Below, piece by piece: positions 9,972 to 32,763 of a stretch of DNA of 37,531 bases. Source of the DNA: Promethearchaeota archaeon (lineage in GTDB: Archaea; Asgardarchaeota; Thorarchaeia; Thorarchaeales; Thorarchaeaceae); the NCBI GenBank assembly GCA_048939765.1, contig JBHLPF010000036.1, positions 1 to 37,531 on the forward strand. Reading direction: 5' to 3'. Position numbers and translations under genes: made by a program. The first letter of the stretch is position 1. Each line of letters opens with the position of its first letter. The notes below the pieces were generated by a model. The model was not told the DNA's origin. It saw only the letters and a list, made by a program, of their open reading frames with translations, and did no database searches.

Positions 9972-10538
9972 CTAGTTGCCATACTTCTGAGTCAGCTCTC
10001 TGATCTTGAAGTCTAGCTGTTCAATTCCAATTCCAGTCTTTGCCGAAATCAGTTGCAGTCCGGTTCCAGCATCCTCTGCGAACTGAATCATCTCTTTGTG
10101 GATATTGTCAAATGTACCATCCAAAAGGTCGATTTTGTTGCCCACAAGAATGAATCTGGAGCCATCGTCTCTGCTGAAATCAAATCCAGCATTCTCCTCT
10201 ATCAAGGGCACCCAGTAACTGATTAGATTGTCCAAGCTCTGTAAATGGGTCACGTCAAAGAAGAGGAGCCCTATTCTGCACCCTCGTATCATGCTCTTAA
10301 GCTGCTCAATGAATCGCATTTGACCCCCAAAATCCCACATTGAAAGGACGATACTACCATCTCCATTGGGAGATTCAATCCTCTTGGTTGCAAAGCTAAC
10401 CCCAATCGTTGTCTGAAGTGTTCTGGGATCAGGAAATGTGCCGTTTGTCCAACGTGATGTAAAGGACGTCTTACCGCATTCAGAGTCCCCTAGAATCACC
10501 GATTTGATTATTGGCACGAAAGTCCCATCCCTAGACAT
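9972..10538 (-). CDS. Rab-like small GTPase (Ras superfamily)
   Basis: G1 GDSECGKTS, G2 TTIGVSF, G3 WDFGGQ, G4 NKID, G5 SAK; no C-terminal Cys. Confidence 0.93.
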   Translation of the reverse strand: MSRDGTFVPIIKSVILGDSECGKTSFTSRWTNGTFPDPRTLQTTIGVSFATKRIESPNGDGSIVLSMWDFGGQMRFIEQLKSMIRGCRIGLLFFDVTHLQSLDNLISYWVPLIEENAGFDFSRDDGSRFILVGNKIDLLDGTFDNIHKEMIQFAEDAGTGLQLISAKTGIGIEQLDFKIRELTQKYGN

Positions 10539-10646
10539 CTGTGGCCTATTTGTCGTCCAGCAGATTTACCCCGAAACATGATAATTAAAGGATTAGGTGG
10601 ATGAATCCATTACGCTAGTCGTATTGGTGGTATGTTTCATTAGAAC

Positions 10647-10910
10647 TCATTTCTTTTTTCGTGGTTTCTTCTTGGCAGCGCTCTCTTCTGGTATTCGATA
10701 AGCCACGACAACATCACGTATTCCCAGGCCTTCACCGGTCCTAAGATTGTAAAAGGTGACGACAAGCTCATGCTCATTTTCACAACGAACAATAAAAAGA
10801 GGAGACCGTCCCTCGCTCAGTATATTTTGCTTTATTTTTGTGGCCTTTCTCTTGGACATCTCAATTTTGGTTTGCCCGCTGCATTCGGGACATTTGAAGA
10901 CAATTTCCAA
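10647..10910 (-). CDS. Small CxxC...CxxxH zinc-ribbon protein with polybasic tail
   Basis: FKCPEC...CENEHELVV...GIRDV and C-terminal KKKPRKKK; paralog at 32512-32763. Confidence 0.8.
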   Translation of the reverse strand: MEIVFKCPECSGQTKIEMSKRKATKIKQNILSEGRSPLFIVRCENEHELVVTFYNLRTGEGLGIRDVVVAYRIPEESAAKKKPRKKK

Positions 10911-11051
10911 GGCATCACGTCCAAGAAAGGCATTGAAGGTCCCTAATAATCTCTGGGACTCCTTCTGGCTTGCATCTGGTTGGCAGAAAAGGGAAGCCGC
11001 ATATGAAGCTTGTTCCGTTTGTCATGAGCTGTAAGGTGAAGAGGAAGTAGA

Positions 11052-11216
11052 TTAACGAGTTCCCTTATGATTCGCATCTAGTTCATTGAAGCGCCTTCGC
11101 ATACAATCCCTTATGAATTCGGGAAAGGAAGCATAGCCCAAGTCATACTCCTTGTTCTTTCTCTCGAACTGAATCTTGTAATCCCGTGGGATCTTTACAG
11201 ACAATCTCCTTGTCAT
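11052..11216 (-). CDS. Ribbon-helix-helix (CopG-like) DNA-binding protein
   Basis: LSVKIP...GYASFPEFIRDCMRRR; ATG at 11216 avoids overlap with the GNAT gene. Confidence 0.7.
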   Translation of the reverse strand: MTRRLSVKIPRDYKIQFERKNKEYDLGYASFPEFIRDCMRRRFNELDANHKGTR

Positions 11217-11256
11217 AACAATTGTATAATTCCCACACGTATTAATTCCTCTCTTT

Positions 11257-12162
11257 CTACAGCTCAACCTCATAGAGAAATAGACGACGTTCTGAGAAAT
11301 CACCAGGCCAGGCGCCCATCCCAGAGTCCGTATATCCTAATCCTGTTACCCAGTTTGTTGCATTAGGTCCCATTAGAAAGGTGACCCGCGTAGCTCCCCT
11401 TTCTGATATCTCGTCTACAATCCTTGCCATCATGTCAACAAAGATGCTTTGATTCGTCGTGTAGACTATATAGGAAGTGGCACGTTCTCCTCGATCATCC
11501 CGTAATGGAGCGCTGTAATAAAGGCCGCCTGGATTGCCATTCTCATCCGTCACAAGATGAATGTCTGTTGTAGCTGTTAGATGCTTGAGATCGCTGAGAG
11601 ACTTCTGATAGAACTGAAAATCAAATGGTATATAGTGATTGGGGACAAGAGAGGGGAAAGTTCTCAATACCTCAGCGACACGCTCAAGACTTGCCTTAAT
11701 TGGAATAAACGCAGGACTTGGGGTGGGGTGAGACGGAAATGGCGTGTAGAGATGAAAAGAGCCATACTGGTCTCGTATAGAGAATCCCAACTGCTCAGCT
11801 AGCTTCATAGATGGGGCATTGGAGTTCATTGTCAGGTATAGAAGACGCTTTACACCAATCTCCCGCGCGGTATCAAACAGATTCTTGGTGAGCCTTTTGC
11901 CATGGCCTTCTCGACGGCGGGTTTCTTTGGTTCTCAAACCTGAGATATACCCAGTACCGAATGACTGCACTATTTGAAGCGTGCAGATAGACAAGAGTTC
12001 ATCGCCTTCAAAAAGACCTCTGACAATATACTCTGGATTATCGATCCAATATGGCAAGACTTCTGGTATGTAGTCATTGCCGCCCCAAGTTGTGGAGCAG
12101 ATTGCGATGACCCCTTCCATATCAGATTGCACAAGGTCGCGAATCTTAGCCAAAGAGTGCAC
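11257..12162 (-). CDS. GNAT-family N-acetyltransferase
   Basis: GYISGLRT...RREGHG acetyl-CoA motif and N..S.KLAEQLGF; extra C-terminal domain. Confidence 0.88.
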   Translation of the reverse strand: MHSLAKIRDLVQSDMEGVIAICSTTWGGNDYIPEVLPYWIDNPEYIVRGLFEGDELLSICTLQIVQSFGTGYISGLRTKETRRREGHGKRLTKNLFDTAREIGVKRLLYLTMNSNAPSMKLAEQLGFSIRDQYGSFHLYTPFPSHPTPSPAFIPIKASLERVAEVLRTFPSLVPNHYIPFDFQFYQKSLSDLKHLTATTDIHLVTDENGNPGGLYYSAPLRDDRGERATSYIVYTTNQSIFVDMMARIVDEISERGATRVTFLMGPNATNWVTGLGYTDSGMGAWPGDFSERRLFLYEVEL

Positions 12163-12224
12163 CTAGAAATGAGAGCTCTTGGATGGATTTGAAGCTTGAC
12201 CTCTCGTCTTGAGATCTGGAAGAA

Positions 12225-12881
12225 TCATGCCACCATCATAGATAGAAGGATTGTCCCGTAATTCATCAGAATGGGAAATATCAGCCAAACGAGATAGTTG
12301 CCGGGTGGAGCTGTAAACCTATCCAATTGAGATGGTAGGAACCTGAAATAGCCATTTCGGACAGAATACCAAATCCAGAGCTCCTTCTGGCGACTGAAGT
12401 AGGGTTCAAGAAAAAGAAGGTCAAACACTGAAGCTAGCAATCCAGATAGCACACATGCTTCAAGACCTGATAGGCCAAAAATCAGTCCAGTGAGAAAGGC
12501 AGCCTGAATCGAGAAAATCCATAGAAATGGGATCCATATTGGGACATTTCTAATGAAGGGGCCATTACTGTGGATTCTGGGGTATTCATAGTATCCTTGT
12601 GAGGAGACATAACTTTCGCCCATCGCTGCGACAAGTATTATCCCTGCAAGCTGTGCTAGTGCACTCCAGCCAACATATTGAAACATCCAATATGTCGAGA
12701 TGGCGGCCAGAATAGTGAATGTTGCCAAGATGCGCAAATAGCGGGCTCTGATGGTAGCCCGATTCACCACATGGTCAAGCTTGGGGAAGGACAGGTTTAG
12801 GCTTTGTCTCCTATTGACCGTAACCTGCTTATTGCACTCTGAAAGAACTCTGTTGTCCTGTTCCTCATTGAAACTACCCAC
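12225..12881 (-). CDS. CruF-like (carotenoid biosynthesis/DUF422) membrane protein
   Basis: E......GYYEY, GP...VP.WIP..W, D...EP, W.W and P.GNY..W motifs. True start is probably downstream of 12797. Confidence 0.7.
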   Translation of the reverse strand: MGSFNEEQDNRVLSECNKQVTVNRRQSLNLSFPKLDHVVNRATIRARYLRILATFTILAAISTYWMFQYVGWSALAQLAGIILVAAMGESYVSSQGYYEYPRIHSNGPFIRNVPIWIPFLWIFSIQAAFLTGLIFGLSGLEACVLSGLLASVFDLLFLEPYFSRQKELWIWYSVRNGYFRFLPSQLDRFTAPPGNYLVWLIFPILMNYGTILLSMMVA

Positions 12882-13096
12882 ATTTTACCCTCCTTCCTTC
12901 GGTCTATCTTTCTAGTAGCCAGTGAATCTTGAACATTCATAATAAGGTCTACAGCTTTTGATACGGTACGACGGTCGATCCCTGTTGCTCTTGCCAAACC
13001 TGATATCGAGGCCGAGGGAACCTCCTTCAAGGCGGCAAGGACATCAACGATGGCTTGGGGAAAATCAACACGAGTCGCAGGCAGTGATGAAGACAT
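12797..13096 (-). CDS. Winged-helix HTH protein
   Basis: SISGLARATGIDRRTVSKAV helix-turn-helix. Confidence 0.8.
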   Translation of the reverse strand: MSSSLPATRVDFPQAIVDVLAALKEVPSASISGLARATGIDRRTVSKAVDLIMNVQDSLATRKIDRRKEGKMWVVSMRNRTTEFFQSAISRLRSIGDKA

Positions 13097-13132
13097 CGCA
13101 ATTCAAGATCCATCACACCACATTGCCTTTTA

Positions 13133-13174
13133 TACATTATTATGTACACATAGTTATGGCTACATTATTATGCC
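13133..13174. promoter_or_regulatory. Three in-phase 14-bp repeats (ACAT-N4-ATG) between the divergent HTH gene and iorA
   Basis: TACATTATTATGTA / CACATAGTTATGGC / TACATTATTATGCC. Confidence 0.6.
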
Positions 13175-13275
13175 ACTATTTGAAACCTCATATCAGCCCA
13201 GGATTTTGATGTGCATAGCTGAACGCTTATGTTGATTCTTCGCATCTGAGCAGCAACCCGATACTCGGGCTTGCA

Positions 13276-15192
13276 TTGGAGAGAGAATTGATGACTGTCG
13301 AGGATGTGAAACGGACCGACAAAGGACCGGCGCTCATGCTTTCAAATGAAGCTGTCGTGCGCGGAGCGTTGGAAGCAGACGTGAAAATTGTCGCATTCTA
13401 TCCCGGGTCTCCGGTCAGTGAGATTCTGGACACCTTTGGTGAGGTGCTAGAGCATTTTGGCGATTATAAGATGCACATTGCCGCCAACGAGAAAGTGGCG
13501 TTGGAAACTGTTGCAGGAGCTTCGATGGCAGGACAACGTTCGTTTACTTCCATGAAGAGTGTTGGAATGAATGTTGCCAGTGACTCCATGTACAGCCTCG
13601 GCTACGTTGGAGTGAACGCTGGATGTGTCTGCCTCATCGCAGACGACCCGTATGCACACTCTTCACAGAGCGAGCAAGATGGCAGGTATTATGGTGAATC
13701 CGCGTACATACCTATGATAGAACCTTCTACACCCCAGGAAGCTCACGATATGGTCAAATGGGCCTTTGAGGTCTCAGAGAAACACAAAACCCTCGTTATC
13801 ATGAGGACAACGACAAGAGTCAATCACCAGAGAGGCATGGTCAATCTCGGAGAATTACACAGAACCCCATTCAAGAAAAACCGATGGGAGGATGTCAAGG
13901 GTCAATATTTCACAGTCGGGGCAGTCGCTCGGAGGTTGAAGGCAGCCTTGCTTGAGAAGGTGAAGTCTATCAAAGAAGACTTCGAGAAGACTCCGTTCAA
14001 TTTCATTGACAAAGGAAATGGAGAAGTTGGGGTTCTAACATCCGGCGTCTGCTACCTTCACTCAAAAGAGGCAATGAAGAATCTAGGCGTTGACATTCCT
14101 GTGTTCAAGCTTGGTACGATCTATCCATTGCCCGAAAAGAAGTTGGCAGAGTTCATCAAGCCACTTCAAACACTGATTGTTGTTGAGGAACTCACTCCTT
14201 ATCTAGAGACCAAGATTGCCGCAATAGCGAAGGATGTGAATCCCTCACTATACATTGTTGGGAAGAAGTCAGGGCACTTCTCGGAAATGCTCGAATACAA
14301 TGTGCCAATCGTTGAGAAGGTGTTTGCTGAAGTGCTGAACACCAAGCCAAGCATAGACTATGATGCTGTCCTAGAGAAAGCAAATCGACTGAAGGAAGTC
14401 CTCCCAGATAGACCGCCAATCTTCTGTCCTGGATGTCCCCATCGTGGAACTCTCTGGGCTTTTAGGCAGGCATTGCAGCGACTTAGAATCCGCGATAAGA
14501 TCGTCTTCAACAATGACATTGGCTGCTATAGCATGGCATTCCTCCCTCCAAACGAGTTTTCTGATTCTATGCTTGCAATGGGAGCCTCTCTGGGAGTTTC
14601 TGCTGGCATGGAGTTGGCTCTCGAAGACAAGGTGATAGCGATGGTGGGAGACTCCACGCTCTATCATGCTGCTTTGCCTGGAATTGTCAATCTCATCCAT
14701 CATAACTCGAATGTGACACTTTTTGTTCTCGACAATGCCGTAACTGCAATGACTGGTCAGCAATTCAATCCCAACTCACCATACAATGCAGGGGGTCAAC
14801 CAGCCAAGAAGATCAACATGGAAAAGATGTTCGAAGCGCTGGGAGCTGAAAGCGTCACCATCATTGATCCATATGAAACTCGAGATTGCATTGGATCTAT
14901 CAAGAAGGCGATAGAGGCTGACGGATTCAATGTGATTATCTCCAGACGAGAATGTGCGCTCTACGGAGACCGACTCAAGAAGAACGCTGGTCAGAAGATC
15001 ATCCCGGGTGAGAATGACAAGGAGACCTGCAGAGGAATCTATGCGTGTGTCCGAGAATTCTACTGCCCAGCCATAGCGGTGGATAAGAGCGACCACAAGA
15101 TGGTGATTCAAGCTGACCTGTGTGACGGATGCCTGGAATGTCGACAAGTGTGCCCTGTTGATGCACCCCAGCAAATGGAGGTGAAGAGATGA
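13276..15192 (+). CDS. iorA: Indolepyruvate ferredoxin oxidoreductase alpha subunit
   Basis: YPGSP.SEI, NEKVALE, SQSEQD, RPPIFCPGCPHR, DIGCY, GDST..H, LDNAVTAMTG; C-terminal ferredoxin domain. Confidence 0.96.
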   Translation: MERELMTVEDVKRTDKGPALMLSNEAVVRGALEADVKIVAFYPGSPVSEILDTFGEVLEHFGDYKMHIAANEKVALETVAGASMAGQRSFTSMKSVGMNVASDSMYSLGYVGVNAGCVCLIADDPYAHSSQSEQDGRYYGESAYIPMIEPSTPQEAHDMVKWAFEVSEKHKTLVIMRTTTRVNHQRGMVNLGELHRTPFKKNRWEDVKGQYFTVGAVARRLKAALLEKVKSIKEDFEKTPFNFIDKGNGEVGVLTSGVCYLHSKEAMKNLGVDIPVFKLGTIYPLPEKKLAEFIKPLQTLIVVEELTPYLETKIAAIAKDVNPSLYIVGKKSGHFSEMLEYNVPIVEKVFAEVLNTKPSIDYDAVLEKANRLKEVLPDRPPIFCPGCPHRGTLWAFRQALQRLRIRDKIVFNNDIGCYSMAFLPPNEFSDSMLAMGASLGVSAGMELALEDKVIAMVGDSTLYHAALPGIVNLIHHNSNVTLFVLDNAVTAMTGQQFNPNSPYNAGGQPAKKINMEKMFEALGAESVTIIDPYETRDCIGSIKKAIEADGFNVIISRRECALYGDRLKKNAGQKIIPGENDKETCRGIYACVREFYCPAIAVDKSDHKMVIQADLCDGCLECRQVCPVDAPQQMEVKR

Positions 15193-15821
15193 AGGAATCA
15201 GATACTTTCAACATCATGTTCGCAGGTGTCGGGGGGCAGGGCTTAATGCTTCTCTCAGCAATCCTTGGCAAAGCCGCGGTTGACTCTGGTCTGGAGGTCA
15301 AGACTGGTGAACAACATGGCCTCTCTCAAAGACAGGGGTCGATCTATGTTCACTTCAGAATTGGCAAACCCATCTCTCCATTGATACCCTATGGTAAGGC
15401 TGACATGGTCATCGCGATGGAGGCTAGCGAAGTGCTTCGATACATCGAGTATCTAAAGGAAGGTGGAGTCGTCATCATGAGCAATCGCAGAATGGCATCT
15501 GTCACTGAAACTGAAACCGTTGCGCTGGACAAAGAGAAGAAGACGTCCTATCTGACAGTGGACCAAATAGTTGAGAAGATCCATGAAGTCACTGACAAGG
15601 TGATTCTACTTGATTCACTGAACCTGGCAATTCAAGCCGGAAATGCAAGGACTGAGAACTCTGTTCTAATTGGAGCAACTGCCGCCTGCGAGGACTTTCC
15701 AATCCCAGCAGAAGAGGTTCGAAAGGCGGTTCTAGCTCTTGTACCACCTAAGACGGTGGAGGCCAACTCGAAAGCCTTTGACCTAGGGAGAGATGCCGGT
15801 GGTGCCTGTCTAGGAACCTAG
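15189..15821 (+). CDS. iorB: Indolepyruvate ferredoxin oxidoreductase beta subunit
   Basis: GVGGQG, EQHGLSQRQGS, SPLIP.G.AD and N.KAF..G; ATGA overlap with iorA. Confidence 0.95.
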   Translation: MKESDTFNIMFAGVGGQGLMLLSAILGKAAVDSGLEVKTGEQHGLSQRQGSIYVHFRIGKPISPLIPYGKADMVIAMEASEVLRYIEYLKEGGVVIMSNRRMASVTETETVALDKEKKTSYLTVDQIVEKIHEVTDKVILLDSLNLAIQAGNARTENSVLIGATAACEDFPIPAEEVRKAVLALVPPKTVEANSKAFDLGRDAGGACLGT

Positions 15822-16834
15822 CGCGACGATAGCTTTCGAAACACAACGGCCACGATGAGTATGAGAACAATGGCGCCAGCAATCATTATGTAGAGCATGG
15901 GCCCTGCGAAAATATCTGGCGCTTGGACAGTCACCATTACAGTATCGACGGCCGTATTTCCTGCAAAATCACTCACTACAATTGTGTAGTTGTATTCTCC
16001 AGCACTTAACCCCCATGCAGGAACCGCTATGGATTCAGATGACGAGTTCCAATCTCCTGACATCAAGGTCGTTCCATCAACAAATACCTCGTAGCTCAGA
16101 GGATAATCATCGCTCGGGGTCCACGTTATAGTTTCGCCTGAACTGCCTCCCTCAAAGTAGCCAATGTCATCGGGATGATTCAGAACAGGTGCTGTTTTGT
16201 CCCGATATGGCTCCATGCCTATTCGATTCAGTTCCAGCTCACCAGTCTTCTCCATAGTTGTGGTATTGTAGCTGTCAAGCGAGTAGTGAGATAGGAATCC
16301 ATCTTCCTTGAAGTAATCCACATGTACGAAGATCGTGATTCCTTCTTCGATACTGAACCCATCAAATGTGAAGTTGTCATCATCCCAACTGAATCCCCAA
16401 AAATAGGGATCGTCAGCATCCATGGCAACATGGTCTACGTTCAATGTGGTTGAGAAAAGGATGCTCATCAGTGTCCAGTTTCCAATGGGCAGCTGGAAGC
16501 GGAGCGCTGTTACGAAGGTCAGGACAATTATGCCCAGATCTGTTCCGTTAGCGTAGTAGGAATTGAGAGTGGCGTAGGGGATATCAGACCAGTTAGTCAA
16601 GGAGTCAGGTATTGAGGGAAGAGGCCCTGTACTGTTAACGTATATTTCTTCATCAATTTGCATATCTTCTGCATCGAGATGCATCATGAAGGAAACTTCA
16701 TCTTCGGGATCGTAACCCCACTCTAACCCCTGATTAGTTTGTGCAACTACTGTTGGATAGGAGAGCATTGTGATTATGCATAAGACTACAAGAACTGCTT
16801 TTGCGCGGTTCATCCTACTTTCTCCTGAAGACAA
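15818..16834 (-). CDS. Membrane-anchored surface glycoprotein with C-terminal Ig-like domain
   Basis: Signal peptide; many NxS/T sequons; P.L.HP.D..Y..G....ITW..SD..P.SY....G.YNYTIVV.D.AGN...DTV.V.V; C-terminal TM. Confidence 0.8.
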   Translation of the reverse strand: MSSGESRMNRAKAVLVVLCIITMLSYPTVVAQTNQGLEWGYDPEDEVSFMMHLDAEDMQIDEEIYVNSTGPLPSIPDSLTNWSDIPYATLNSYYANGTDLGIIVLTFVTALRFQLPIGNWTLMSILFSTTLNVDHVAMDADDPYFWGFSWDDDNFTFDGFSIEEGITIFVHVDYFKEDGFLSHYSLDSYNTTTMEKTGELELNRIGMEPYRDKTAPVLNHPDDIGYFEGGSSGETITWTPSDDYPLSYEVFVDGTTLMSGDWNSSSESIAVPAWGLSAGEYNYTIVVSDFAGNTAVDTVMVTVQAPDIFAGPMLYIMIAGAIVLILIVAVVFRKLSSR

Positions 16835-16940
16835 TCAATCTCCAAGAACATAGCCACTTCTGCTGTTAAAAACAAATCGTGAACTCAGTTATTGGACTTC
16901 CACACCGCCCAATAGCTAAAGTTATTAACCATAGTGAAGT

Positions 16941-17978
16941 TTGGATAGTGGAGGCGAGGAATCTTTGGATGAGCCAAAACTCTATGATGCCATTATCGTT
17001 GGTGGAGGTCCAGCTGGATGTTCAGCCGCTCTGCATCTAGCATATCATAAGCGTGATGTCTTGGTTTTGGATCGGGGAACAAGCCCAATGAGTTTCCATC
17101 ACAACACCATTGTCAATTTTGCGTCTGGTGAGGCGTATCATGAAGGCCGGCCTCTTCTCAGGAATATGCAGGGGATTGCAAGGGCAGCTGGAGCTGAGAT
17201 GAAGGAGGCAAATGTCGCAGAAGTTTCTGGACGGTATCCACGCTTTATTGTGCGTACAGACAGGAGTTATCGAACCCAGGACATATCCGAGTATGAGGCA
17301 AAGATACTCCTTTTTGCGACAGGCACCGCCAGAAAGCATCCAAAGGTGAATGGGATGTGGAGAGGGTGGTTACCAGTTGCTAATGCAGGCAACGCGGCGT
17401 TCTATTGCCCGGATTGCGAGGCGCCTCTCTGCAAAGACAAGGATGTTCTTGTCGTCAATGCGGGAACCGTCGGAAGTGCCCTCCATACAGCTAACTCATT
17501 GACACGCTTTACTGATAGAATCAGAATCCTCATGACTGAGGACGCATACATACCTATTGAGGAACAAGACCTGACGAAATTGGATGAATCACCTTTTGAG
17601 TGGATACGCGGCACAATCAAAGCTGTAGAGTTTCCGGTCCCTGGGAAGATGCAGTCTATCACACTTACGAACGGCTCGAAAATAAAGGCAGAGGTGTTCT
17701 TCGTCGCTTTTGTTGCCGAGCCAAGATCAGAACTGGCTCAACAGATTGGTGTGCAGGTTGACAGCAGAGGAAACATCATCACTGACCATAGAGGAAAGAC
17801 AAATGTTGAGGGAGTCTGGGCGGCGGGAGACTGTAGACCCATAACTCAGCAGATAGCTATGGCTATTGGCACAGGGAATTATGCTGGTCTCATGATGAAT
17901 CAATTCCTCGGCAATGATTACGAGTTAGAGAAGGAGTTTGACCATCCAGACCATCGCGCTCCTCTGCACATGGGCTAG
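16941..17978 (+). CDS. Thioredoxin-reductase-like FAD-dependent oxidoreductase
   Basis: GGGPAG, ATG, YCPDC and TNVEGVWAAGD; degenerate second Rossmann motif. Confidence 0.88.
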   Translation: MDSGGEESLDEPKLYDAIIVGGGPAGCSAALHLAYHKRDVLVLDRGTSPMSFHHNTIVNFASGEAYHEGRPLLRNMQGIARAAGAEMKEANVAEVSGRYPRFIVRTDRSYRTQDISEYEAKILLFATGTARKHPKVNGMWRGWLPVANAGNAAFYCPDCEAPLCKDKDVLVVNAGTVGSALHTANSLTRFTDRIRILMTEDAYIPIEEQDLTKLDESPFEWIRGTIKAVEFPVPGKMQSITLTNGSKIKAEVFFVAFVAEPRSELAQQIGVQVDSRGNIITDHRGKTNVEGVWAAGDCRPITQQIAMAIGTGNYAGLMMNQFLGNDYELEKEFDHPDHRAPLHMG

Positions 17979-18421
17979 GCTGGCTTCAACATCAATAGCC
18001 GATAGCTCTCATAGAGAGACATCAACACTGCAATGAGGCCCATAGCAATGAACATAATGTCCTCTCCACGGGGTGGAAATTCGCAGTAGAATGCCAGATA
18101 CACAATAAGCATACCTGTGAATAGAGTTGCCAGAAAGGCGAAGCGGGGAAGGAATCGCTTTCCGATCCTCACAAAGAGTGTAAGTGAACCGACACGGACA
18201 GTTCTTGCAACAGAATACTCACCATGAGCGTTCTTGGTTACCAAACCAGCTTCTTCTAGCTTCGTGAGATGATGTTTGGAAAGACTTGGGCTTGAAAAGC
18301 CGAGCTCCCTCTGTATCTCTCGCACACCCATTTCATCTCGTGTCAGAAGGAGCGAGTAGACTGACATAGTCCTTCCTTTCAGAAGCTCCTCTATACTCTG
18401 GACGTCCTCCTCAGTGCTCAT
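17975..18421 (-). CDS. Membrane-bound wHTH transcriptional regulator (HTH + 2 TM)
   Basis: GVREIQRELGFSSPSLSKHHLTKLEEAGLV.K...G.Y followed by two hydrophobic helices. Confidence 0.88.
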   Translation of the reverse strand: MSTEEDVQSIEELLKGRTMSVYSLLLTRDEMGVREIQRELGFSSPSLSKHHLTKLEEAGLVTKNAHGEYSVARTVRVGSLTLFVRIGKRFLPRFAFLATLFTGMLIVYLAFYCEFPPRGEDIMFIAMGLIAVLMSLYESYRLLMLKPA

Positions 18422-26484: not shown

Positions 26485-26545
26485 CCCTTCAGACCTCCAA
26501 GATACTATTGAGTTTGGCCAGACAGTTGAATTGTTTTATTATCGG

Positions 26546-26581
26546 ATGTGATATTGAATGCGATATCGAATGCGATATAAA
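26546..26581. promoter_or_regulatory. Three tandem 12-bp repeats upstream of the ABC operon
   Basis: ATGTGATATTGA ATGCGATATCGA ATGCGATATAAA. Confidence 0.55.
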
Positions 26582-26730
26582 GTTGCTGGTTTTTTCTCCG
26601 ATGGAGAAAACAAGAGAATCGCCCTTCTATGTTTCTCCGGTTTCGATACAGAAATCTAGAGTTATAAGCTGGATGATTGAGACATCACGTTGCCATTTCT
26701 TACGCTTCTGTTTTGCCGGCTCCAATCCTT

Positions 26731-27858
26731 TCATTTATTCGCTTGGATGGCATTGTATGTTTCTTCCATAGTCTTTGGCGGGATGAACTCCTTCTCATGC
26801 TTCTTTAGTGTGATAGCTCCTTCAGGACAGTTAGCTACACATACCCCACATCCGATGCATCTGTCCAGGTTGATAACCAGTAAGTCATCCTGGAAACTCA
26901 GCGCTTTCATCTGACAAAGATCCACGCATGTGCCGCATTGCGAACAAAGATCATGGTCTACTTCTGAACGGTAGTTGGTGGTGAATAATTCTACAGGTTT
27001 TGGCATTGCTCCCTTTCCACGGAGGAGACCACAGCAGCAACCGCAACAGCTGCAAATGAACTCAAACTTCTCGGAATTGCTGGGCTGAAGGACAAGACCC
27101 TCACTCTGAGCTTGTTCAATGAGCTCCATCAGCTCATCTTTAGAAATCTCACGCCCCCATCCATTACTGATGAACATCTTGGCAAAAGGTCCTGAACCAA
27201 TGCAGGTCTCCTCTCTATCAGTGACTTTGCATGGCTTGCCGTGAATCTTCTTTATTTCTCTGCATATGCAATGCATGACCATGAAGGGAGCATCAGCAGT
27301 TTCAATGAGTTCTCTTATGTTGTCATAACTCGCTACAGGGCTTTCAGGTGAGAAGCTTTTCTGAACTGGAATGATTCTGAATTGTTTGGGTCGCGCCGTG
27401 AATAGTGCTTTGCCGTACGCATCTCTGTTGTAATCACGAGAAAGCTTGATGAACTCCTCTGTCATTCGCCCAATTTGAAGCTCATAGATTCCGACCATCC
27501 ATTGTGCATTGTTATAGAACTTCGTCCCTTCTTCAACCTTGAAGTGCACTAGTCCCTTTGACGCCATCCTATCTAGAACCTCTTCAAGCGCCTCGATAGT
27601 GATACCAACGTCTTTTGCTCGATCGAAGATAGTTTCCAAGTCATCTACGGCGCGATGCCAGTACGTAAGAAATGTGGCAATGAGGGCTTCTTCGGGTGTG
27701 AAAAGATACTTCAGAAGTCGTATGTCAGCATCGGATTCTGCCGCAGGAAATCCGATAGGGGTCTTATCCAAGTGCTCCTGCAAACGACGATAGACACTAT
27801 CATCAGCCAACTCTGCTTCTGTCAATCTGCATTCTCCTCCTGTATCGTAGGATGTCAT
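26731..27858 (-). CDS. Multi-Fe-S protein (N-terminal wHTH-like region, Cys-rich core, C-terminal 2x[4Fe-4S])
   Basis: CICR, CSCCGCCCG, CSQCGTCVDLC and CIGCGVCVANCP. Confidence 0.9.
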   Translation of the reverse strand: MTSYDTGGECRLTEAELADDSVYRRLQEHLDKTPIGFPAAESDADIRLLKYLFTPEEALIATFLTYWHRAVDDLETIFDRAKDVGITIEALEEVLDRMASKGLVHFKVEEGTKFYNNAQWMVGIYELQIGRMTEEFIKLSRDYNRDAYGKALFTARPKQFRIIPVQKSFSPESPVASYDNIRELIETADAPFMVMHCICREIKKIHGKPCKVTDREETCIGSGPFAKMFISNGWGREISKDELMELIEQAQSEGLVLQPSNSEKFEFICSCCGCCCGLLRGKGAMPKPVELFTTNYRSEVDHDLCSQCGTCVDLCQMKALSFQDDLLVINLDRCIGCGVCVANCPEGAITLKKHEKEFIPPKTMEETYNAIQANK

Positions 27859-28268
27859 TGACTAAAGCCTACATTAAAAGAATTCGAAAATGAGTTGGAA
27901 TAAGGTGGGCGCAACCCAAGTGGGCAATATGACGCTTGCCGCGCCACCACCTAATGATTTGTGCGTCACATTCCATAGAGCTCATTTTGGAGCAATATGC
28001 AAGGTCCGGATCGCACGCCAGAATCCTGGACCGACCCACATCAGTTGTGCTGCGCCCTTGCTTTAGAGTCATCCATAATGTGTTACATAAACAGTATGGT
28101 GGCTCCACCTTAACTGGTCACGTAACCGCATTAAGGTTTTGGTCTGCGCCCCAACCCCCACTTAACATACGTGTTTGTCGTGGCGCTCTCTAAGCATTGC
28201 ATGCTTAATACGGTATAGTAGTATATAATAGTTGTTAGACCGGATAGTCTATCTGAAACCAGTCTGGT

Positions 28269-30872
28269 TCATTTAATCTGTCGGACCAACACTTGAATCA
28301 TAAGTTCATCCCCTAGGATTATTCGTGTCATGTTTAGCTCTGAATCGAATGTAGATCCATCGCATCTCTTGAATTGCCATCTTGCAGTTTCTGTACTCCC
28401 GGCCAAGATGGAGTCAATTATCTTGAGGACTCTTTGTTTTGATGATGACTTGTCAGGCTGACGACGTGGAGATAGCTGCCATAGCGCCTTTTCGATGACT
28501 TCACTCCTTTTGCATCCAAGCATTCTTAGGAACGCTCTATTGCAGTCAGTCGCGGTAGATTCTTTCAGCAGGAGAAGAGCATCACTTGACATTTTGATGA
28601 GGGACAAGTATCTATCGTCGCTTTCTTTAAGGGCACCCTCGAGCATTTTCTGCTTCGTGATATCTAGGAGAAGAACCTGTAGAGCTGGCTTACCCTCGTA
28701 TATTATCCTGGAAGGAAAGCTACGATACCAGACGACCGATCCATCGTGATGTACGTATTCATCCTCATAGCCACTATGTGGTGCCACTTGCTTCCCATCC
28801 AGAATATCGAGCATTGTTTGCAGTGCTCCCTCAACATGACGAGGGTGCAGCGCATCTGAAACCCATTTGGGACCCATAGCGATGAGGTCCTCTGTAGTAT
28901 ACCCTGTGAGTTCAGTTGTTGACTGATTGGCGTACACTATAGTTAGAGGATTTCCACGCATGATAATAATTGGGAAAGCACTGGATTCGACCAAGGTTCG
29001 AAATCTCTCTTCACTTTCCCTAAGCATCATCTCAGATTTCTTCCGCTCGGTTATGTCTTGAATTTGCGCCAAGTAGACAAATCCTGTTCCGTCTTCTGCC
29101 GCTTGCAAGGCTGAACCAATGATGCTCAAATGAATAGGATCCGTTTTGGTTGAGTTGAATCCTGCCCCTCTAATGTCATATTCAACTTCGAATGTAATCA
29201 CTTCGCCTTCTTGGACGTCACTAAGAACCCATTCAGGCAAATTCGTGTCTTTTTCAAGCAGGTATTCCTCGAACCCCGTTTCACGGCTAATACCAAGGAT
29301 ATCTGCGGCTGCTTGGTTTATCTGAATTATCCTGCCTTCCGAGTCAAAGAGAAGGATACCATAGAGCGAAACCTCGAAGATTCCTCTGAACCTTTTCTCG
29401 CTTTCACGTAGGGCTGCTTCTCCTTCAATCTGCTCAGTGATGTCAACCTCTAGTGTTTGCATCGCATTACGACCATCATGTTCCACAACATTTACGTATG
29501 ACTCAACCCATCTGACGTCACCATTAGGCCGAATATAGCGAAACCTATGACTGGGAAGCTTCTTGACTCCTGACTTGACCGCATCATTCCTCCTAATGAG
29601 CTCCTCCCGATCTTCAGGATAAATCATGTTCCAGGTTTCATCGGGACTCATCTTAAGCAACTCGCCCATGGAACGTCCGACAGTGCGAGCATAGGCAGGA
29701 TTGACGAATACGAAGCGGCCATCAACCAGTATCGAGATACCTTGCAGGGATTCGTTGACCAATCTTCTATATCGTTCTTCGCTCCGATCAAGTGCTTCAA
29801 GTACTAGCTTTTCATGGGTCACATCCAATAAGGTACCTGCCGAACGGACTGGATTCCCATCATCATCTCTATCAACGACTCGCCCTCGGTCAAGTACCCA
29901 GACATAATCGCCAGATTTTGTCATCATCCGATGCTCAGATGAATACATAGGCGTCTTATTCTCAAGGTGGTCATCCCACACAGCAAGGACTAACTCAAGG
30001 TCATCGGGATGAATAAGAGCTTCCCAGTTTTCAGCATATTCATTCAGCTCCTGCAACGAATATCCCAATAGCTTTGCATAACGTTCGCTGAACGTCATTC
30101 TGCCTGTCTTATGATGCCAATCCCAAGGAGCAAGGTCAGCTCCTTTGAGAGCGAGGTCCAATCTTTCCTGGCTCTGGCGCAAAGCTTCCAACGTTGATTT
30201 TTGCTCCGTGATGTCTCGAACAACCGAAACTATGCTTTCGCCATCATCGTGAAGGCTCATTGTTACCGAAAACCAGTATGTTGCTTCATTGATAGTGAGT
30301 TGATACTCAAAGGCATCCGCTCGTCCGGTTTCCTTCACTTCCTGTGCCATCTCTACCGCTTTCTCCGTAACATCAGGAGGAAGCACGTCTCGCTCCGCTA
30401 GGTCTGGAGATATCTCGAAAGTTGTTGGAACATAGAATCGGGCGGTGGTTCGGAAGTACATTCCTCTAACCCGTTTCGATGTGCCCTTGTCATCCTCCTT
30501 TGGTGGTGGATATTGGTCTACCAAGCCTTGGTCACGTAGCTTTCTGAGGTGATAGTAGCAGTTGTAGTTTGATATCTCGAGCTTGGGCCTATTCTCCTTG
30601 ATAATGGCAAGGATTTCGTGGACACTCAACCAGTACCTTGTTGATGGCTTCCGAATTGTCACTTCCTCAGAAATGAGTGTACCGTCCTCAAGAGCCCTTT
30701 CTGTCCGCTTGCTTTCCGTTACGTAATCCTCATACCCCTGATCTAGCGCTCTTAGAATCTCGAGTCTAAGAGGATGATAGAGAGATTCCTTCTGATCTGC
30801 TGTTTCGAGGACCATGAAATCTTGTCGTGTTGTTTCAGGCAACTCTATTCGGACTGAATTTTCAGGGACCAT
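28269..30872 (-). CDS. wHTH regulator fused to an array of PAS domains (one half plus five full), no kinase domain
   Basis: N-terminal HPLRLEILRAL...YYHLRKLRDQGLV; repeated SEERY/F...D(I/V)TE.K PAS/PAC units running to the C-terminus. Confidence 0.92.
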   Translation of the reverse strand: MVPENSVRIELPETTRQDFMVLETADQKESLYHPLRLEILRALDQGYEDYVTESKRTERALEDGTLISEEVTIRKPSTRYWLSVHEILAIIKENRPKLEISNYNCYYHLRKLRDQGLVDQYPPPKEDDKGTSKRVRGMYFRTTARFYVPTTFEISPDLAERDVLPPDVTEKAVEMAQEVKETGRADAFEYQLTINEATYWFSVTMSLHDDGESIVSVVRDITEQKSTLEALRQSQERLDLALKGADLAPWDWHHKTGRMTFSERYAKLLGYSLQELNEYAENWEALIHPDDLELVLAVWDDHLENKTPMYSSEHRMMTKSGDYVWVLDRGRVVDRDDDGNPVRSAGTLLDVTHEKLVLEALDRSEERYRRLVNESLQGISILVDGRFVFVNPAYARTVGRSMGELLKMSPDETWNMIYPEDREELIRRNDAVKSGVKKLPSHRFRYIRPNGDVRWVESYVNVVEHDGRNAMQTLEVDITEQIEGEAALRESEKRFRGIFEVSLYGILLFDSEGRIIQINQAAADILGISRETGFEEYLLEKDTNLPEWVLSDVQEGEVITFEVEYDIRGAGFNSTKTDPIHLSIIGSALQAAEDGTGFVYLAQIQDITERKKSEMMLRESEERFRTLVESSAFPIIIMRGNPLTIVYANQSTTELTGYTTEDLIAMGPKWVSDALHPRHVEGALQTMLDILDGKQVAPHSGYEDEYVHHDGSVVWYRSFPSRIIYEGKPALQVLLLDITKQKMLEGALKESDDRYLSLIKMSSDALLLLKESTATDCNRAFLRMLGCKRSEVIEKALWQLSPRRQPDKSSSKQRVLKIIDSILAGSTETARWQFKRCDGSTFDSELNMTRIILGDELMIQVLVRQIK

Positions 30873-30998
30873 ATTATCGACATCTCTCTGTGACCGCTTT
30901 TCTCTCAGGGATGGGTGTTTTCAAAGCAGCGGAACTCCGCATCTTCCGCGTCAGAATGCTCCCTACAGTAATTTGGCAAACTAGAATAAAAATCTTTG

Positions 30999-31082
30999 TT
31001 ATTGTAATTGACTATATAATGAAGATGTACTAATGCAGAATATTTAAATAGTAATAATTCTTATTGCAATTCGTTACAATAA
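30999..31082. promoter_or_regulatory. AT-rich divergent promoter with TTATTGYAA operator-like sites
   Basis: TTATTGCAA-TTCG-TTACAATAA (31061-31082), extra half-site TTATTGTAA (30999) and palindromic TATTTAAATA (31041-31050). Confidence 0.55.
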
Positions 31083-31112
31083 TACCTAGCATCAAGTGCG
31101 TGGGGTAGTGAA

Positions 31113-31961
31113 GTGACAAGCGTGGGTACTAATGGAAACGACCTAGATCACCTCGATCAAGAAGGGAACAATCCAAAGGTCCTGCTCTTTATTGAAACCG
31201 ATGAACAGAAGCAATCACTTCACCATCCATTCCGGAAGAAAATCCTGAAAGCCCTGAGTGCAGGCATAGAAGACTACGAGACTCAGATAACCACAGAAAT
31301 AAAGACTCTCAAAGACGGCACGGGACTCAAGCATTCACTCGAACTCAAGCGTCCAATCCAGAGATACTGGTTGACGGTATCGGAGCTTGTGGATGAACTC
31401 TGTTATAGATATCCCAAGCTCGAGATCACAAGCTATCAATGCTATTACCATCTTCAGAAATTGGAAGAACAAGGACTTGTGGAACAGGATCCGGCCCCTG
31501 AGTTCAACGATGACGGGAAGAAGAGAAGAATTAGGGGCAGGCGCTTCAGAGCTGCTGCCCGCTTCTTCATTGCCTACAATCCAGGATTCTCTCCAGGAAA
31601 TCCGATCCCTTGTGTTGAGTTTCTTCAGAACAATTGGAATCTCACTCCTACCAAGAAAGACTGTGAAGATCTGACTGACTTGATCTTTCAGCAAGATATG
31701 GCTCTTTTCAAGGCTTTAGAGCATCTCGCGGCTCATCTGAATGAGCCAGATATGGACTCAGTTACGTTGTCTGTGTTGCTCGAACGGCTTGCCCATGTCT
31801 TTCTCTCCGATAATCATGAATTCATTGAAAGATATCGAAAGGCGAAAGCAATCCTCATTCGCGCCGGGGGGAGATTTCTGGAATCAGACACCAACGACAT
31901 GGATGTCACACAGACCAGTGATGCCAAGGGAACAGGAACCAGAGGTTGTGTCAATGAATAG
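31113..31961 (+). CDS. ArsR-like wHTH regulator with beta-hairpin insertion, paralog of the 28269-30872 N-terminus
   Basis: HPFRKKILKAL...RYWLTVSEL...PKLEITSYQCYYHLQKLEEQGLV...RG..FR..ARF. Confidence 0.87.
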   Translation: MTSVGTNGNDLDHLDQEGNNPKVLLFIETDEQKQSLHHPFRKKILKALSAGIEDYETQITTEIKTLKDGTGLKHSLELKRPIQRYWLTVSELVDELCYRYPKLEITSYQCYYHLQKLEEQGLVEQDPAPEFNDDGKKRRIRGRRFRAAARFFIAYNPGFSPGNPIPCVEFLQNNWNLTPTKKDCEDLTDLIFQQDMALFKALEHLAAHLNEPDMDSVTLSVLLERLAHVFLSDNHEFIERYRKAKAILIRAGGRFLESDTNDMDVTQTSDAKGTGTRGCVNE

Positions 31962-32499
31962 CGTATTGAGAAGGCATCCGGTATTCAAGACCGTTATGAT
32001 AGGTGAAGGTGGTGTGGGTAAGACCAGTATCACTGTACGATACACTGAGAATCGTTTCGATGAGAACATGATGATAACAATTGGAGCAAACTTCGTTTCT
32101 AAGAAAGTCGAAATAAACGGGTCACCTCTCACCTTAATGATTTGGGATCTTGGCGGACAGCCTCGTTTTCGCGAGGTTGTTGTAGATTACTTCAGAGGAT
32201 CAAGATACGCAATCGCAGTCTATGATGCAACTCGAGTATACTCATTGGAAAGGCTACCGGATTGGATTGACCGACTGAGAGAATCGGCTCCAAATTGTGA
32301 ACTCCTGTTTGTTGGAAATAAGACGGATGCCAGAGCAAACGGGAGTGGCGTTCCGTTCGAGGAAGGAATCGCATTTGCTGAGAAGTACGATGCGCTTTGC
32401 ATCGAGGTCTCAGCTAAAACCGGAGCGGGAATCGATGACATGTTTGAGTTGGTAGCGCAGAAACTCATTCAGAAGTATCCTGAGATGTTGGAGGTGTAA
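31954..32499 (+). CDS. Rab-like small GTPase
   Basis: GEGGVGKTS, TIGANF, WDLGGQ.RF, YFRG, NKTD and SAK. ATG at 31954 overlaps the upstream stop; the ORF-track extension to 31741 is spurious. Confidence 0.95.
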   Translation: MNSVLRRHPVFKTVMIGEGGVGKTSITVRYTENRFDENMMITIGANFVSKKVEINGSPLTLMIWDLGGQPRFREVVVDYFRGSRYAIAVYDATRVYSLERLPDWIDRLRESAPNCELLFVGNKTDARANGSGVPFEEGIAFAEKYDALCIEVSAKTGAGIDDMFELVAQKLIQKYPEMLEV

Positions 32500-32511
32500 A
32501 CAACGACGAAG

Positions 32512-32763
32512 ATGGTTTTGAGCCCTTTTGCCTGCCCTGAATGCAAAGATGGTTCCTTGGTCAAGGTGGAAGTGGAAGAGGATGAAATTCGCAAAGCTCC
32601 TCGTCTCCCAGCTATGGTGATGACAAAATGTAGCAAGAACCACACACTTGTAGTCTTCGTTGATGGAAATCTCCAGGTCCGAGATGTTGAATCCACACTA
32701 AGCGGTCATAGGGTAAGCAAAGATGCTCTCGACAAAACGGGAGATTGGTTTGTTTCATTGTAA
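32512..32763 (+). CDS. Small CxxC...CxxxH zinc-ribbon protein
   Basis: FACPEC...CSKNHTLVVFVDGNLQVRDVE; paralog of 10647-10910. Confidence 0.82.
   Translation: MVLSPFACPECKDGSLVKVEVEEDEIRKAPRLPAMVMTKCSKNHTLVVFVDGNLQVRDVESTLSGHRVSKDALDKTGDWFVSL

Follow-up and report, generated by a model that had tools for sequence, protein, structure and literature searches.

The Roadblock/longin fold is a GTPase-regulating platform in MglB, LAMTOR, Mon1-Ccz1 and the conservon proteins CvnB/MfpD. In MglA-MglB (with RomR/RomX), Ragulator-Rag and Mon1-Ccz1, a protein of this fold regulates a small GTPase at a membrane, with lipidated LAMTOR1 as the anchor of Ragulator; to our knowledge, none of these three systems has a zinc-ribbon subunit. 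Actinobacterial conservon and Mfp operons encode a sensor kinase (CvnA), a Roadblock protein (CvnB/MfpD), a DUF742 protein (CvnC/MfpC) and a Ras-like GTPase (CvnD/MfpB). The Roadblock protein has been reported as a GAP (PMC9769811), and a GEF role has been reported for the DUF742 protein in mycobacteria (PMC11343762). In Euryarchaeota, the ArvABC/DipABC/OapABC systems comprise a small GTPase, a DUF2073 protein and a DUF2072 zinc-ribbon protein, and Mss4/RABIF is a small zinc-binding protein acting on Rab GTPases. In Halobacterium salinarum, the bacteriorhodopsin-regulating zinc finger protein Brz is a genetic regulator of transcription. Our study compares with these systems a window of 37,531 nucleotides from an Asgard archaeon of the Thorarchaeia, the window being the whole stretch of DNA that was analysed.

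Two zinc-ribbon proteins and their GTPase neighbours

At two loci of the window, A and B, a small zinc-ribbon gene adjoins a co-oriented Ras/Rab-like GTPase gene (Table 1), as the preliminary description of this DNA had noted, and both GTPases were matched by Pfam Ras above its cut-off of 21.6 bits. GxxxxGKT, DxxGQ, NKxD and SAK motifs are present in each, reading GDSECGKT (G1), WDFGGQ (G3), NKID (G4) and SAK (G5) in GTPase-A, and place both in the Ras superfamily. The open reading frame of GTPase-B extends from 31741 to 32499, with the ATG at 31954 as the likely start; its Pfam Ras match (5.4e-40, 137.1 bits) begins at residue 83 of the long frame, and its alignment with 13 orthologues has a mean column identity of 52 %. 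GTPase-B ends 12 nt upstream of ZnB, and GTPase-A lies 108 nt downstream of ZnA. The latter gap holds a TATA-like TTTAATTAT, so ZnA and GTPase-A may have separate promoters.

Table 1. Features of loci A and B, with positions in the window
Feature	Position	Strand	Description
GTPase-A	9972-10538	minus	188-aa Ras/Rab-like small GTPase; Pfam Ras 1.4e-23, 83.7 bits
ZnA	10647-10910	minus	87-aa predicted Cys2-Cys-His zinc-ribbon protein, A subtype
wHTH protein	31113-31961	plus	ArsR-like HTH_20; Pfam HTH_20 5.9e-7
GTPase-B	31954-32499	plus	Rab-like small GTPase, ~181 aa; first gene of B-type module
ZnB	32512-32763	plus	83-aa predicted Cys2-Cys-His zinc-ribbon protein
RbL	32812-33255	plus	147-aa Roadblock/longin-fold protein (fold from AF2 model and Foldseek)
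Mem	33259-34641	plus	460-aa polytopic membrane protein; third constant module member
507-aa protein	35239-36762		No Pfam match

The motifs that the preliminary description had listed as shared were all located in both proteins: FKCPEC in ZnA and FACPEC in ZnB, KIE and KVE, RSP and RLP, CENEHELVV and CSKNHTLVV, and GLGIRDV and GNLQVRDV. That the two belong to one family was borne out by pairwise BLASTP (26 % identity, E 1e-4) and by profile–profile comparison of their orthologue sets with hhalign (probability 94.5 %, E 8e-8), and the merged alignment has F, CPxC, I, RxP, Cx3H, L and RDV as invariant columns. Judged from their sequences, ZnA and ZnB are paralogues within one Asgard family. The predicted metal ligands are C7, C10, C43 and H47 in ZnA and C8, C11, C40 and H44 in ZnB. 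The resulting patterns, C7-P-E-C10 with C43-x3-H47 and C8-P-E-C11 with C40-x3-H44, agree with the definition of CPxCG-related small zinc fingers by Tarasov et al. 2008: one CPxC-like pattern and a second one in which 2-3 residues separate a Cys/His pair, the patterns being 7-40 residues apart (PMC2253796).

ZnA begins with a TTG codon, as do its annotated homologues, and has 60-91 % identity to its Thorarchaeota homologues; ZnB has 53-67 % identity to its orthologues. The AF2 model of ZnB has a pLDDT of ~86 over residues 1-64 and <50 in the tail, where a disordered linker leads to a conserved C-terminal DKTxDWFxSL. ZnA ends in a polybasic KKKPRKKK, as against the Trp-containing tail usual in the family. 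Members would generally fold as a zinc ribbon with a Cys2-Cys/His-His site and a three-stranded sheet, usually continued by a flexible linker and a short Trp tail.

Linkage of the family to small GTPases

When 1.8 billion representatives were searched exhaustively with a profile, 54 matches were returned, about 45 of them real, and every named match was an Asgard 'hypothetical protein'; the family so far appears to be unnamed and specific to Asgard archaea, where it was found in 277 of 400 genomes. A census took in 26 genomes of 15 GTDB families, with 99 family genes in all, and counted as a neighbour any GTPase within 300 nt. A Ras-like GTPase, mostly co-oriented, accompanied 23 of the 99 against ~2-3 % by chance, at a density of about one Ras gene per 60-120 kb, and this enrichment of about tenfold upheld the expectation that homologues would gather near GTPases. 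In this genome, three of six family genes had such a neighbour (chance 1.8 % per gene); the binomial P of 1.2e-4 is only indicative, as paralogues are not independent, and P values here overstate the support in general because neither paralogues nor orthologues are independent.

GTPase, Zn-wHTH, V4R is a recurrent alternative arrangement, and a GTPase followed by a 65-aa zinc-ribbon protein was seen in three further families. In the largest sampled family (f22), only two of 30 genes had a GTPase neighbour and the domain was mostly fused to unknown domains, and the short members C87 and C16 of this genome had no adjacent GTPase. GTPases beside zinc-ribbon genes fell into two adjacent clades of the GTPase tree, where only one of the other 24 small GTPases encoded by this genome was placed; GTPase-A was placed in the modA clade with an SH-aLRT support of 100.

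Could common archaeal CPxC zinc ribbons simply have come to lie beside abundant GTPase genes? Small CPxC zinc-finger proteins are described as very frequent in archaea (PMC2253796), and Asgard genomes hold 25-96 Ras-family genes each. However, chance adjacency is contradicted by a likeness that reaches well past the metal ligands (RxP, hhhFVD, [IV]RD[VI]), by the enrichment, by a four-gene order kept across classes and by the clades formed by the partner GTPases, and we consider it highly improbable.

An ancient four-gene module

The zinc ribbon belongs to an ancient Asgard module together with a Roadblock/longin-fold protein of ~130 aa, a polytopic membrane protein of ~460 aa and a small GTPase. 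This genome has three full copies, locus B among them. Cassettes C48 and C13 have the order GTPase, Zn, RbL, Mem, and C54 the order Zn, RbL, Mem, GTPase; the closest paralogues of GTPase-B belong to the other two modules (66 and 57 % identity). The same four-gene order recurs in Odinarchaeia and Asgardarchaeia, where the genes were called independently and the GTPases labelled Ras by Pfam.

RbL had no Pfam match, Robl_LC7 included. Its AF2 model, with a pLDDT of only 68, has a beta-beta-alpha-beta-beta-beta-alpha topology and gave 46 PDB matches in Foldseek at E <= 1e-3, all with probability 1.00 and TM-scores of ~0.45-0.54, including the Mon1-Ccz1 longin domain (1.2e-4), MglB (2.3e-4), LAMTOR and the Asgard Roadblock3 9jue; topology and matches at this pLDDT indicate the Roadblock/LC7-longin superfamily. 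Kyte-Doolittle analysis gives Mem, likewise without a Pfam match, 13 hydrophobic segments. An HMM built from the three Mem paralogues matched only those three proteins in the genome; in each of the B-type and C54-type loci examined (L008-L041, L094), it matched the gene product that follows RbL. The RbL and Mem families are confined in this genome to cassettes C48, C13 and C54, with each of the three RbL-type genes directly 3' of a zinc-ribbon gene.

In four other Thorarchaeota genera, the A-type module runs from Zn through a gene for a 124-aa protein and one or two Mem genes to a GTPase. As this GTPase is by synteny the orthologue of GTPase-A, with the same downstream genes, locus A is a deletion remnant that has shed the Roadblock-like and membrane genes but still has the zinc ribbon and GTPase. 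The preliminary description had taken the two pairs of the window for an independent recurrence; that part does not hold, since both are diverged paralogous copies derived from one ancestral four-gene module.

The gene most constantly adjacent to that of the zinc ribbon encodes not the GTPase, which occupies either end of ancestral-form modules, but the Roadblock-fold protein, always downstream of B-type and C54-type zinc ribbons. The two genes are tightly packed in many loci, with anything between an overlap of 18 nt and a gap of a few nt, and their products have look-alike C-terminal Trp tails (...SDWGKTVL in RbL), counted in 30/39, 15/15 and 4/4 proteins of three alignments against a background of 17 %. 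In the lineage whose A-type locus lost its RbL-like and Mem genes, the Trp tail of ZnA has given way to the polybasic one.

The proposal of a dedicated GTPase partner was therefore upheld in part. Genomic context backs it, because linkage exceeds chance across Asgard lineages and arrangements and the linked GTPases cluster; the direct partner may, however, be the Roadblock-fold or the membrane protein, as these are the constant neighbours while the GTPase sits at either end. Taken together, the zinc ribbon is probably a dedicated subunit of a membrane-associated small-GTPase module and a putative adaptor or co-regulator of the GTPase cycle, for which the roles of GEF, GAP cofactor or anchor may be envisaged. 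It would act through protein–protein contacts, most likely with the Roadblock-fold protein encoded directly after it, and its C-terminal tail may help to anchor the complex, either to the membrane or to the membrane protein. The full module is represented by locus B, and a reduced form with only the zinc ribbon and GTPase by locus A. In the archaea most closely related to eukaryotes, the family is a likely candidate partner of GTPase switches.

The invariance of Zn, RbL and Mem, from whose immediate neighbourhood the GTPase moves or departs, together with Trp tails that could dock on one receptor, would also suit a role of the zinc ribbon and Roadblock-fold protein as cytosolic accessory subunits of the membrane protein, in assembly, gating or sensing. 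We regard this as rather improbable, and hold the same view of its corollary, that the zinc ribbon makes no contact with the GTPase, which would be merely a downstream output or regulator. In the A-type locus the Mem and RbL-like genes were deleted while ZnA and GTPase-A were kept together (77-91 % identity), and short or wHTH-fused members pair with GTPases that have no such membrane protein nearby; both observations speak against such a role.

Comparison with described GTPase systems

By organization, the Asgard module appears closest to the actinobacterial conservons. Both are multi-copy operons in which a Ras-superfamily GTPase is combined with a protein of Roadblock fold, a membrane protein and a small protein of unclear fold, and some zinc-ribbon paralogues are fused to a wHTH domain with DUF742 as its best Pfam match and are encoded after a GTPase gene. 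These matches, at 26.5, 21.1, 17.9 and 15.2 bits, did not reach the cut-off of 27 bits, and ZnA and ZnB lack a DUF742 region and did not match DUF742 (PF05331). Locus B has a GTPase, a Roadblock fold and a small protein, whereas its membrane partner is not a histidine kinase: it is a ~13-TM protein that belongs to no Pfam family and has no kinase domain. The Asgard GTPases are also Rab-like, whereas those of conservons are MglA-like, and the lineage differs.

The ArvABC/DipABC/OapABC systems likewise pair a small GTPase with a zinc-ribbon protein in an archaeal operon. However, no DUF2072 match was obtained among 39 family members at E <= 1 in Pfam, the neighbour has a Roadblock fold, and the module includes a polytopic membrane protein and a GTPase of another family. 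The middle protein is of the Roadblock/longin type, whereas ArvB has a predicted structure like SepF (PMC10927574). The matches of the RbL model extend to the MglB, LAMTOR and Mon1-Ccz1 longin domains of MglA-MglB, Ragulator-Rag and Mon1-Ccz1; unlike in Ragulator, anchoring may come from the polytopic protein and the short tails. Mss4/RABIF is a functional precedent only. In line with the preliminary description, which claimed no homology to it, no Mss4 match was found among the 39 members in Pfam or among the 50 best structural matches listed (Foldseek, VIA), and size and predicted strand layout differ.

Relationship to Brz

By sequence, the zinc-ribbon domain appears closest to Pfam Zn_ribbon_Brz (PF23454), a profile of 58 positions with a gathering cut-off of 27.9 bits. 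ZnA (20.1 bits, E 0.001, profile positions 6-57) and ZnB (11.9 bits) did not reach this cut-off; relatives of the two nevertheless establish the link at family level, as alignment A4 has 39 members, 22 of which matched at E <= 1. A-type members match nearly the whole profile, one of them (P0029) above the cut-off at 28.8 bits, followed by P0035 (26.2) and P0053 and P0068 (24.9 each). Brz resembles the Asgard family in its CPxC and Cys/His-x-His ligand layout and as a small stand-alone protein, but it adjoins bop, brp and bat rather than GTPase or Roadblock genes.

The zinc ribbon might accordingly be a Brz-like regulator of module transcription, alone or with wHTH or PAS-wHTH proteins, and not a subunit of GTPase machinery; we consider this unlikely. 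Zn_ribbon_Brz was the only recurrent family match, and Brz requires its Cys and His ligands to raise bop mRNA, with cooperation with the PAS-HTH factor Bat proposed by its authors (PMC2253796). A wHTH gene opens locus B, which faces a wHTH-multiPAS gene, and ZnA ends in a polybasic tail. A nucleic-acid role would also fit the wHTH domains carried by some paralogues; yet those domains are most like DUF742, reported as a GEF of mycobacterial conservon GTPases and not a DNA binder (PMC11343762), and the available text of PMC2253796 holds no demonstration of DNA binding by Brz itself. What is conserved across Thor-, Odin- and Asgardarchaeia is the partnership with a Roadblock-fold protein, a membrane protein and a GTPase, whereas the wHTH and PAS genes are not conserved, and the tail is shared with the Roadblock-fold protein. 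The wHTH gene is lacking in the paralogous modules C13 and C54 and in those of Odin- and Asgardarchaeia, and lies outside the conserved core; its end overlaps the start of GTPase-B, and its product may regulate the locus B operon.

The zinc-ribbon pair and its GTPase neighbours

Our analysis confirmed that both zinc-ribbon open reading frames of the window, ZnA and ZnB, are present as first described, with all of the quoted motifs (FxCPEC, K[IV]E, RxP, Cx3HxLVV and [IV]RDV) common to the two, and that each adjoins a Ras-family GTPase, ZnA lying upstream and ZnB downstream. The two proteins share 26 % identity by BLASTP (E 1e-4), and alignments of their orthologue sets (6 A-type and 10 B-type sequences) matched each other with a probability of 94.5 % and an E value of 8e-8 by hhalign. 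The invariant columns of the merged A+B alignment were F, C-P-x-C, I, R-x-P, C-x3-H, L and R-D-V, which are predicted from sequence to be a Cys2-Cys-His metal site and a conserved strand. Both neighbours, GTPase-A and GTPase-B, belong to the Ras family by Pfam and have intact G motifs. ZnB begins 12 nt past the end of GTPase-B, and GTPase-A lies 108 nt downstream of ZnA. This 108-nt gap contains a TATA-like TTTAATTAT approximately 45 nt ahead of the GTPase-A start, and GTPase-A may therefore have a promoter of its own.

Locations and gene orders of the features discussed (G000, the window's own genome; C, contig; G, genome; L, fetched locus; f, coded Asgard GTDB family)
Feature	Location	Strand	Size	Gene order
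ZnA	window 10647-10910	minus	87 aa	
ZnA/GTPase-A gap	window 10539-10646	minus	108 nt	
ZnB	window 32512-32763	plus	83 aa	
RbL, Roadblock/longin-fold protein	window 32812-33255	plus		
Mem, polytopic membrane protein	window 33259-34641	plus		
First protein downstream of Mem	window 34719-35216		165 aa	
Second protein downstream of Mem	window 35239-36762		507 aa	
C48 cassette (window)	G000:C48			GTPase-B, ZnB, RbL, Mem
C13 cassette	G000:C13			GTPase, Zn, RbL, Mem
C54 cassette	G000:C54			Zn, RbL, Mem, GTPase
Odinarchaeia contig module				Zn (92 aa), 130 aa, 463 aa, Ras GTPase
Asgardarchaeia contig module				Zn (79 aa), 129 aa, 454 aa, Ras/Arf GTPase
C46 GTPase locus	G000:C46:87388-89101	minus		
C16 short member	G000:C16:34377-34574		65 aa	
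C87 short member	G000:C87:54400-54621		73 aa	
Triads	L047:928-2558, L051:642-2305, L054:622-2278, L124:746-2619, L131:267-2318			GTPase / zinc ribbon / V4R (Bet3/TRAPPC3-like)
f22 tandem arrays	L068, L072, L080 (G170:C6:836457-840572), L085/L088 (G163:C104), L066 (G277:C10)		~280 aa	2-3 genes
Fusions with C-terminal Zn	L062:1093-1689, L064:1090-1692, L065:1054-1692, L070:1093-1680, L074:1486-2049, L081:4-606, L116:1507-2100		~200 aa	

Four-gene modules and their reduction at locus A

The window's genome holds six members of the zinc-ribbon family, three of which head paralogous cassettes. Across these cassettes RbL spans 133-175 aa and Mem 460-488 aa with ~13 hydrophobic segments, both without a Pfam match. 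The predicted RbL model has the topology beta-beta-alpha-beta-beta-beta-alpha and matches the Mon1-Ccz1 longin, MglB, LAMTOR and an Asgard Roadblock structure. Iterative searches of this genome found RbL and Mem confined to the three cassettes, and in other genomes Mem came directly after RbL at every B-type and C54-type locus fetched. The cassette GTPases are mutual closest paralogues (57-66 % identity) and are also the best own-genome matches of GTPase-A (30-37 %). The two proteins downstream of Mem had no Pfam match at E ≤ 0.01 and were not detected by the RbL profile.

The A-type zinc ribbon was present in four other Thorarchaeota genera, where it carries the tail DWLKxAFGG and its gene precedes those of a 124-aa protein, one or two membrane proteins of ~470 aa and a 180-aa GTPase that is clearly orthologous to GTPase-A. 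Downstream of both GTPases lie rubrerythrin-like, glutaredoxin and thioredoxin-reductase-like genes. The window's genus has lost the internal genes of the module, ZnA abuts GTPase-A with a tail that reads KKKPRKKK, and the window's own genome retains no homologue of the 124-aa protein; locus A is a remnant of the module. The preliminary description took the two adjacencies for an independent recurrence, a claim that has to be withdrawn, as the paralogy of the cassettes and the synteny of the A-type module trace both to one ancestral module. That the deletion spared the zinc ribbon and the GTPase as a pair argues for a joint function of the two.

The same gene order was seen in modules from Odinarchaeia and Asgardarchaeia, identified from independent gene calls and precomputed Pfam labels, and the Odinarchaeia 130-aa protein matched the A-type 124-aa profile at E 2.4e-8. 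Membrane proteins of the B-type and A-type matched by hhalign with a probability of 21 % and an E value of 0.0011. Comparison with RbL by hhalign gave a probability of 0.3 % both for the A-type 124-aa protein and for the N-domain of the ~200-aa fusions, so the Roadblock-likeness of both is a by-eye pattern only; profiles gave no support for a longin in this N-domain.

Linkage to a dedicated GTPase lineage

Searching each of 26 genomes (15 GTDB families) in full yielded 99 distinct family genes, 23 of which had a Ras-like GTPase within 300 nt, nearly always co-oriented (21/69 outside family f22). These genomes carry 25-96 Ras-family genes each, and an immediate neighbour is therefore expected by chance in ~2-3 % of cases. 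The zinc ribbon had been proposed as a dedicated GTPase partner, and enrichment beside GTPases was indeed found in this census, although such statistics are only indicative because the family genes are related by descent. In the window's genome a GTPase lay within 300 nt of three of the six members, compared to 1.8 % of random 250-nt intervals, and within 3 kb of five of the six, compared to 7.2 % by chance.

A tree of 53 small GTPases, built by a quick maximum-likelihood search and provisional in its topology, placed those adjoining a zinc ribbon in two adjacent clades (SH-aLRT 87 and 95), and only 1 of the 24 other small GTPases of the window's genome fell inside them. On this tree the module GTPases constitute a dedicated lineage. 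That sole own-genome GTPase of the zinc-ribbon-linked clades without a family member beside it, on contig C46, is preceded by a 384-aa protein opening with a different CxxC...CxxC zinc ribbon.

Proposed function and known systems

Most stand-alone members end in a short Trp tail (e.g. ...DKTxDWFxSL or ...IDWLKKAFGG). This tail, xW[FML]xx[LF], resembles the RbL tail xW[GA]K[KT]V[FL] far above background, and two proteins of unrelated folds thus have look-alike tails (ZnB ...DWFVSL and RbL ...DWGKTVL at locus B; ...DWLKKAFGG and ...EIGDLWR in the A-type pair). In precisely the lineage that lost the membrane and Roadblock-like genes, the Trp tail has given way to a polybasic stretch. Because the tails are alike, the zinc-ribbon tail is disordered in the structural model and it is swapped where Mem and the Roadblock-like gene are missing, we propose that it helps docking at the membrane or a receptor.

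To our knowledge, the Roadblock/longin fold is a small-GTPase-regulating platform in every characterized system, and the zinc-ribbon gene is packed directly against the gene of this fold. The zinc ribbon would bind the Roadblock-fold protein and/or the GTPase and tune the nucleotide cycle. Complex prediction for GTPase-B, RbL and ZnB returned a score of 0.00, which speaks neither for nor against binding. That the zinc ribbon represents a new class of small-GTPase regulator of Asgard origin, acting as an exchange factor or as a specificity cofactor of the Roadblock/longin platform for a dedicated Rab-like lineage, and coupling it to a polytopic membrane sensor like the eukaryotic lysosomal transporter-Ragulator-Rag system, is a reading that we put forward as unlikely.

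By sequence, the nearest Pfam family to the zinc-ribbon domain is Zn_ribbon_Brz, which matched 22 of the 39 members aligned, one of them above the cut-off (ZnA scored 20.1 bits). Brz acts genetically on bop transcription and is proposed to partner Bat at the protein level (PMC2253796). This nearness, together with the effect on bop transcription, leaves room for a regulatory, nucleic-acid-related role of the Brz kind, which we consider unlikely.

With regard to GTPase regulation, the closest system in organization is the actinobacterial conservon or Mfp operon, comprising a membrane kinase, a Roadblock protein reported as a GAP, a DUF742 protein reported as a GEF, and a GTPase (PMC4316618, PMC9769811, PMC11343762). 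Another precedent comes from Euryarchaeota, where ArvABC/DipABC joins a small GTPase to a DUF2073 protein and a zinc-ribbon protein of the DUF2072 family (PMC10927574; bioRxiv 10.64898/2026.05.19.726155). In Pfam searches the proteins of the window did not match DUF742, DUF2072 or Mss4. We regard the module as a prokaryotic regulatory module for small GTPases to which the zinc ribbon would add a new accessory subunit.

Asgard archaea encode dozens of Rab/Ras-like GTPases and Roadblock/longin proteins. As far as we know, the pairing of these GTPases with regulators and their route to the membrane are almost wholly unexplored, the latter being obscure because prenylation sites are absent. Our study offers concrete, repeatedly conserved candidate partners, namely the zinc-ribbon and Roadblock-fold proteins, the ~13-TM protein and a single, specific lineage of GTPases, and all four parts of the module can be expressed and tested jointly. 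If the binding is true, prokaryotic small-GTPase switches would gain an accessory subunit, with a bearing on the pre-eukaryotic organization of membrane-coupled GTPase signalling.

Extent of the family and further arrangements

Only 54 matches at E ≤ 1e-3 came from an exhaustive profile search that covered 1.8 billion representative proteins; ~45 of them were small proteins of the ZnA/ZnB kind, the long matches being repeat proteins. Every named match was recorded as a 'hypothetical protein', the sources being Thorarchaeota, Odinarchaeia, 'Asgardarchaeia' or Promethearchaeota. The family was matched in 277 of 400 genomes of the phylum, being near-universal in the window's own family (82/85) and f22 (133/135), and rare or absent in several others (e.g. 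f8, 2/31; f10, 0/12). A related-locus search with the B-type alignment recovered Thorarchaeota-like records only, and the protein atlas held only unnamed Promethearchaeota clusters. A search of a 5.8-billion-protein index for longer fused forms found none, which is weak evidence. We found no description of the zinc-ribbon family or the four-gene module in the literature, and the text of an Asgard survey with a Roadblock, Rab-like GTPase and DENN operon does not mention either.

AF2 models ZnB with a single short helix and three strands, the Cys/His pairs lying in turns (pLDDT ~86 for residues 1-64, <50 for the linker and tail). This model had no Foldseek match in the PDB at E ≤ 0.001, and a wide structural search (VIA) gave a top Z of 4.1 to LysW and the sarcosine oxidase delta subunit, a generic zinc-ribbon-like arrangement only; neither search found a solved structure matching ZnB beyond generic zinc-ribbon proteins. 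Profiles of the zinc ribbon, RbL, the protein of alignment A6, the N-domain of the Loki-type 200-aa fusions and the 280-aa fusions found nothing meaningful among PDB sequences.

In f22 most copies of the domain are fused to unknown domains and a GTPase neighbour is rare, the zinc ribbon being N-terminal in ~280-aa tandem-array proteins or C-terminal in ~200-aa proteins. The former, with an unknown ~220-aa C-domain, went unnamed in Pfam, the PDB and the atlas and lacked a GTPase neighbour. A DENN-like nature of the ~220-aa C-domain of Loki-type Zn-X proteins, an idea prompted by a published operon (bioRxiv 10.1101/2020.10.19.343400), was rejected, there being no Pfam DENN match. In the ~200-aa proteins the zinc ribbon follows a ~135-aa domain, the strand-strand-strand-helix pattern of which is longin-like by eye.

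One small domain recurs in several kinds of GTPase module, its partners being of the Roadblock, V4R/Bet3-like and wHTH kinds. The order GTPase, Zn-wHTH fusion and V4R-domain protein was present in Thorarchaeota, f8 and f33, and DUF742 was the best, sub-cut-off, Pfam match of the wHTH. The zinc ribbon of these triads is a DUF742-like wHTH fusion in the Thorarchaeota loci and a longer form in L131 (f33); the L124 (f8) protein resembles the Thorarchaeota fusion by eye, without a Pfam match. The V4R scores were 25-38 bits, only the f33 protein exceeding the 31-bit cut-off. A longer Zn-X protein follows the GTPase in f3, f4, f28 and f33. In the short members on C16 and C87 the third Cys is replaced by His (KHDDH); these have no adjacent GTPase, and the same subtype, a 65-aa Cys2-His2 variant, comes after a GTPase in f17, f18 and f19.
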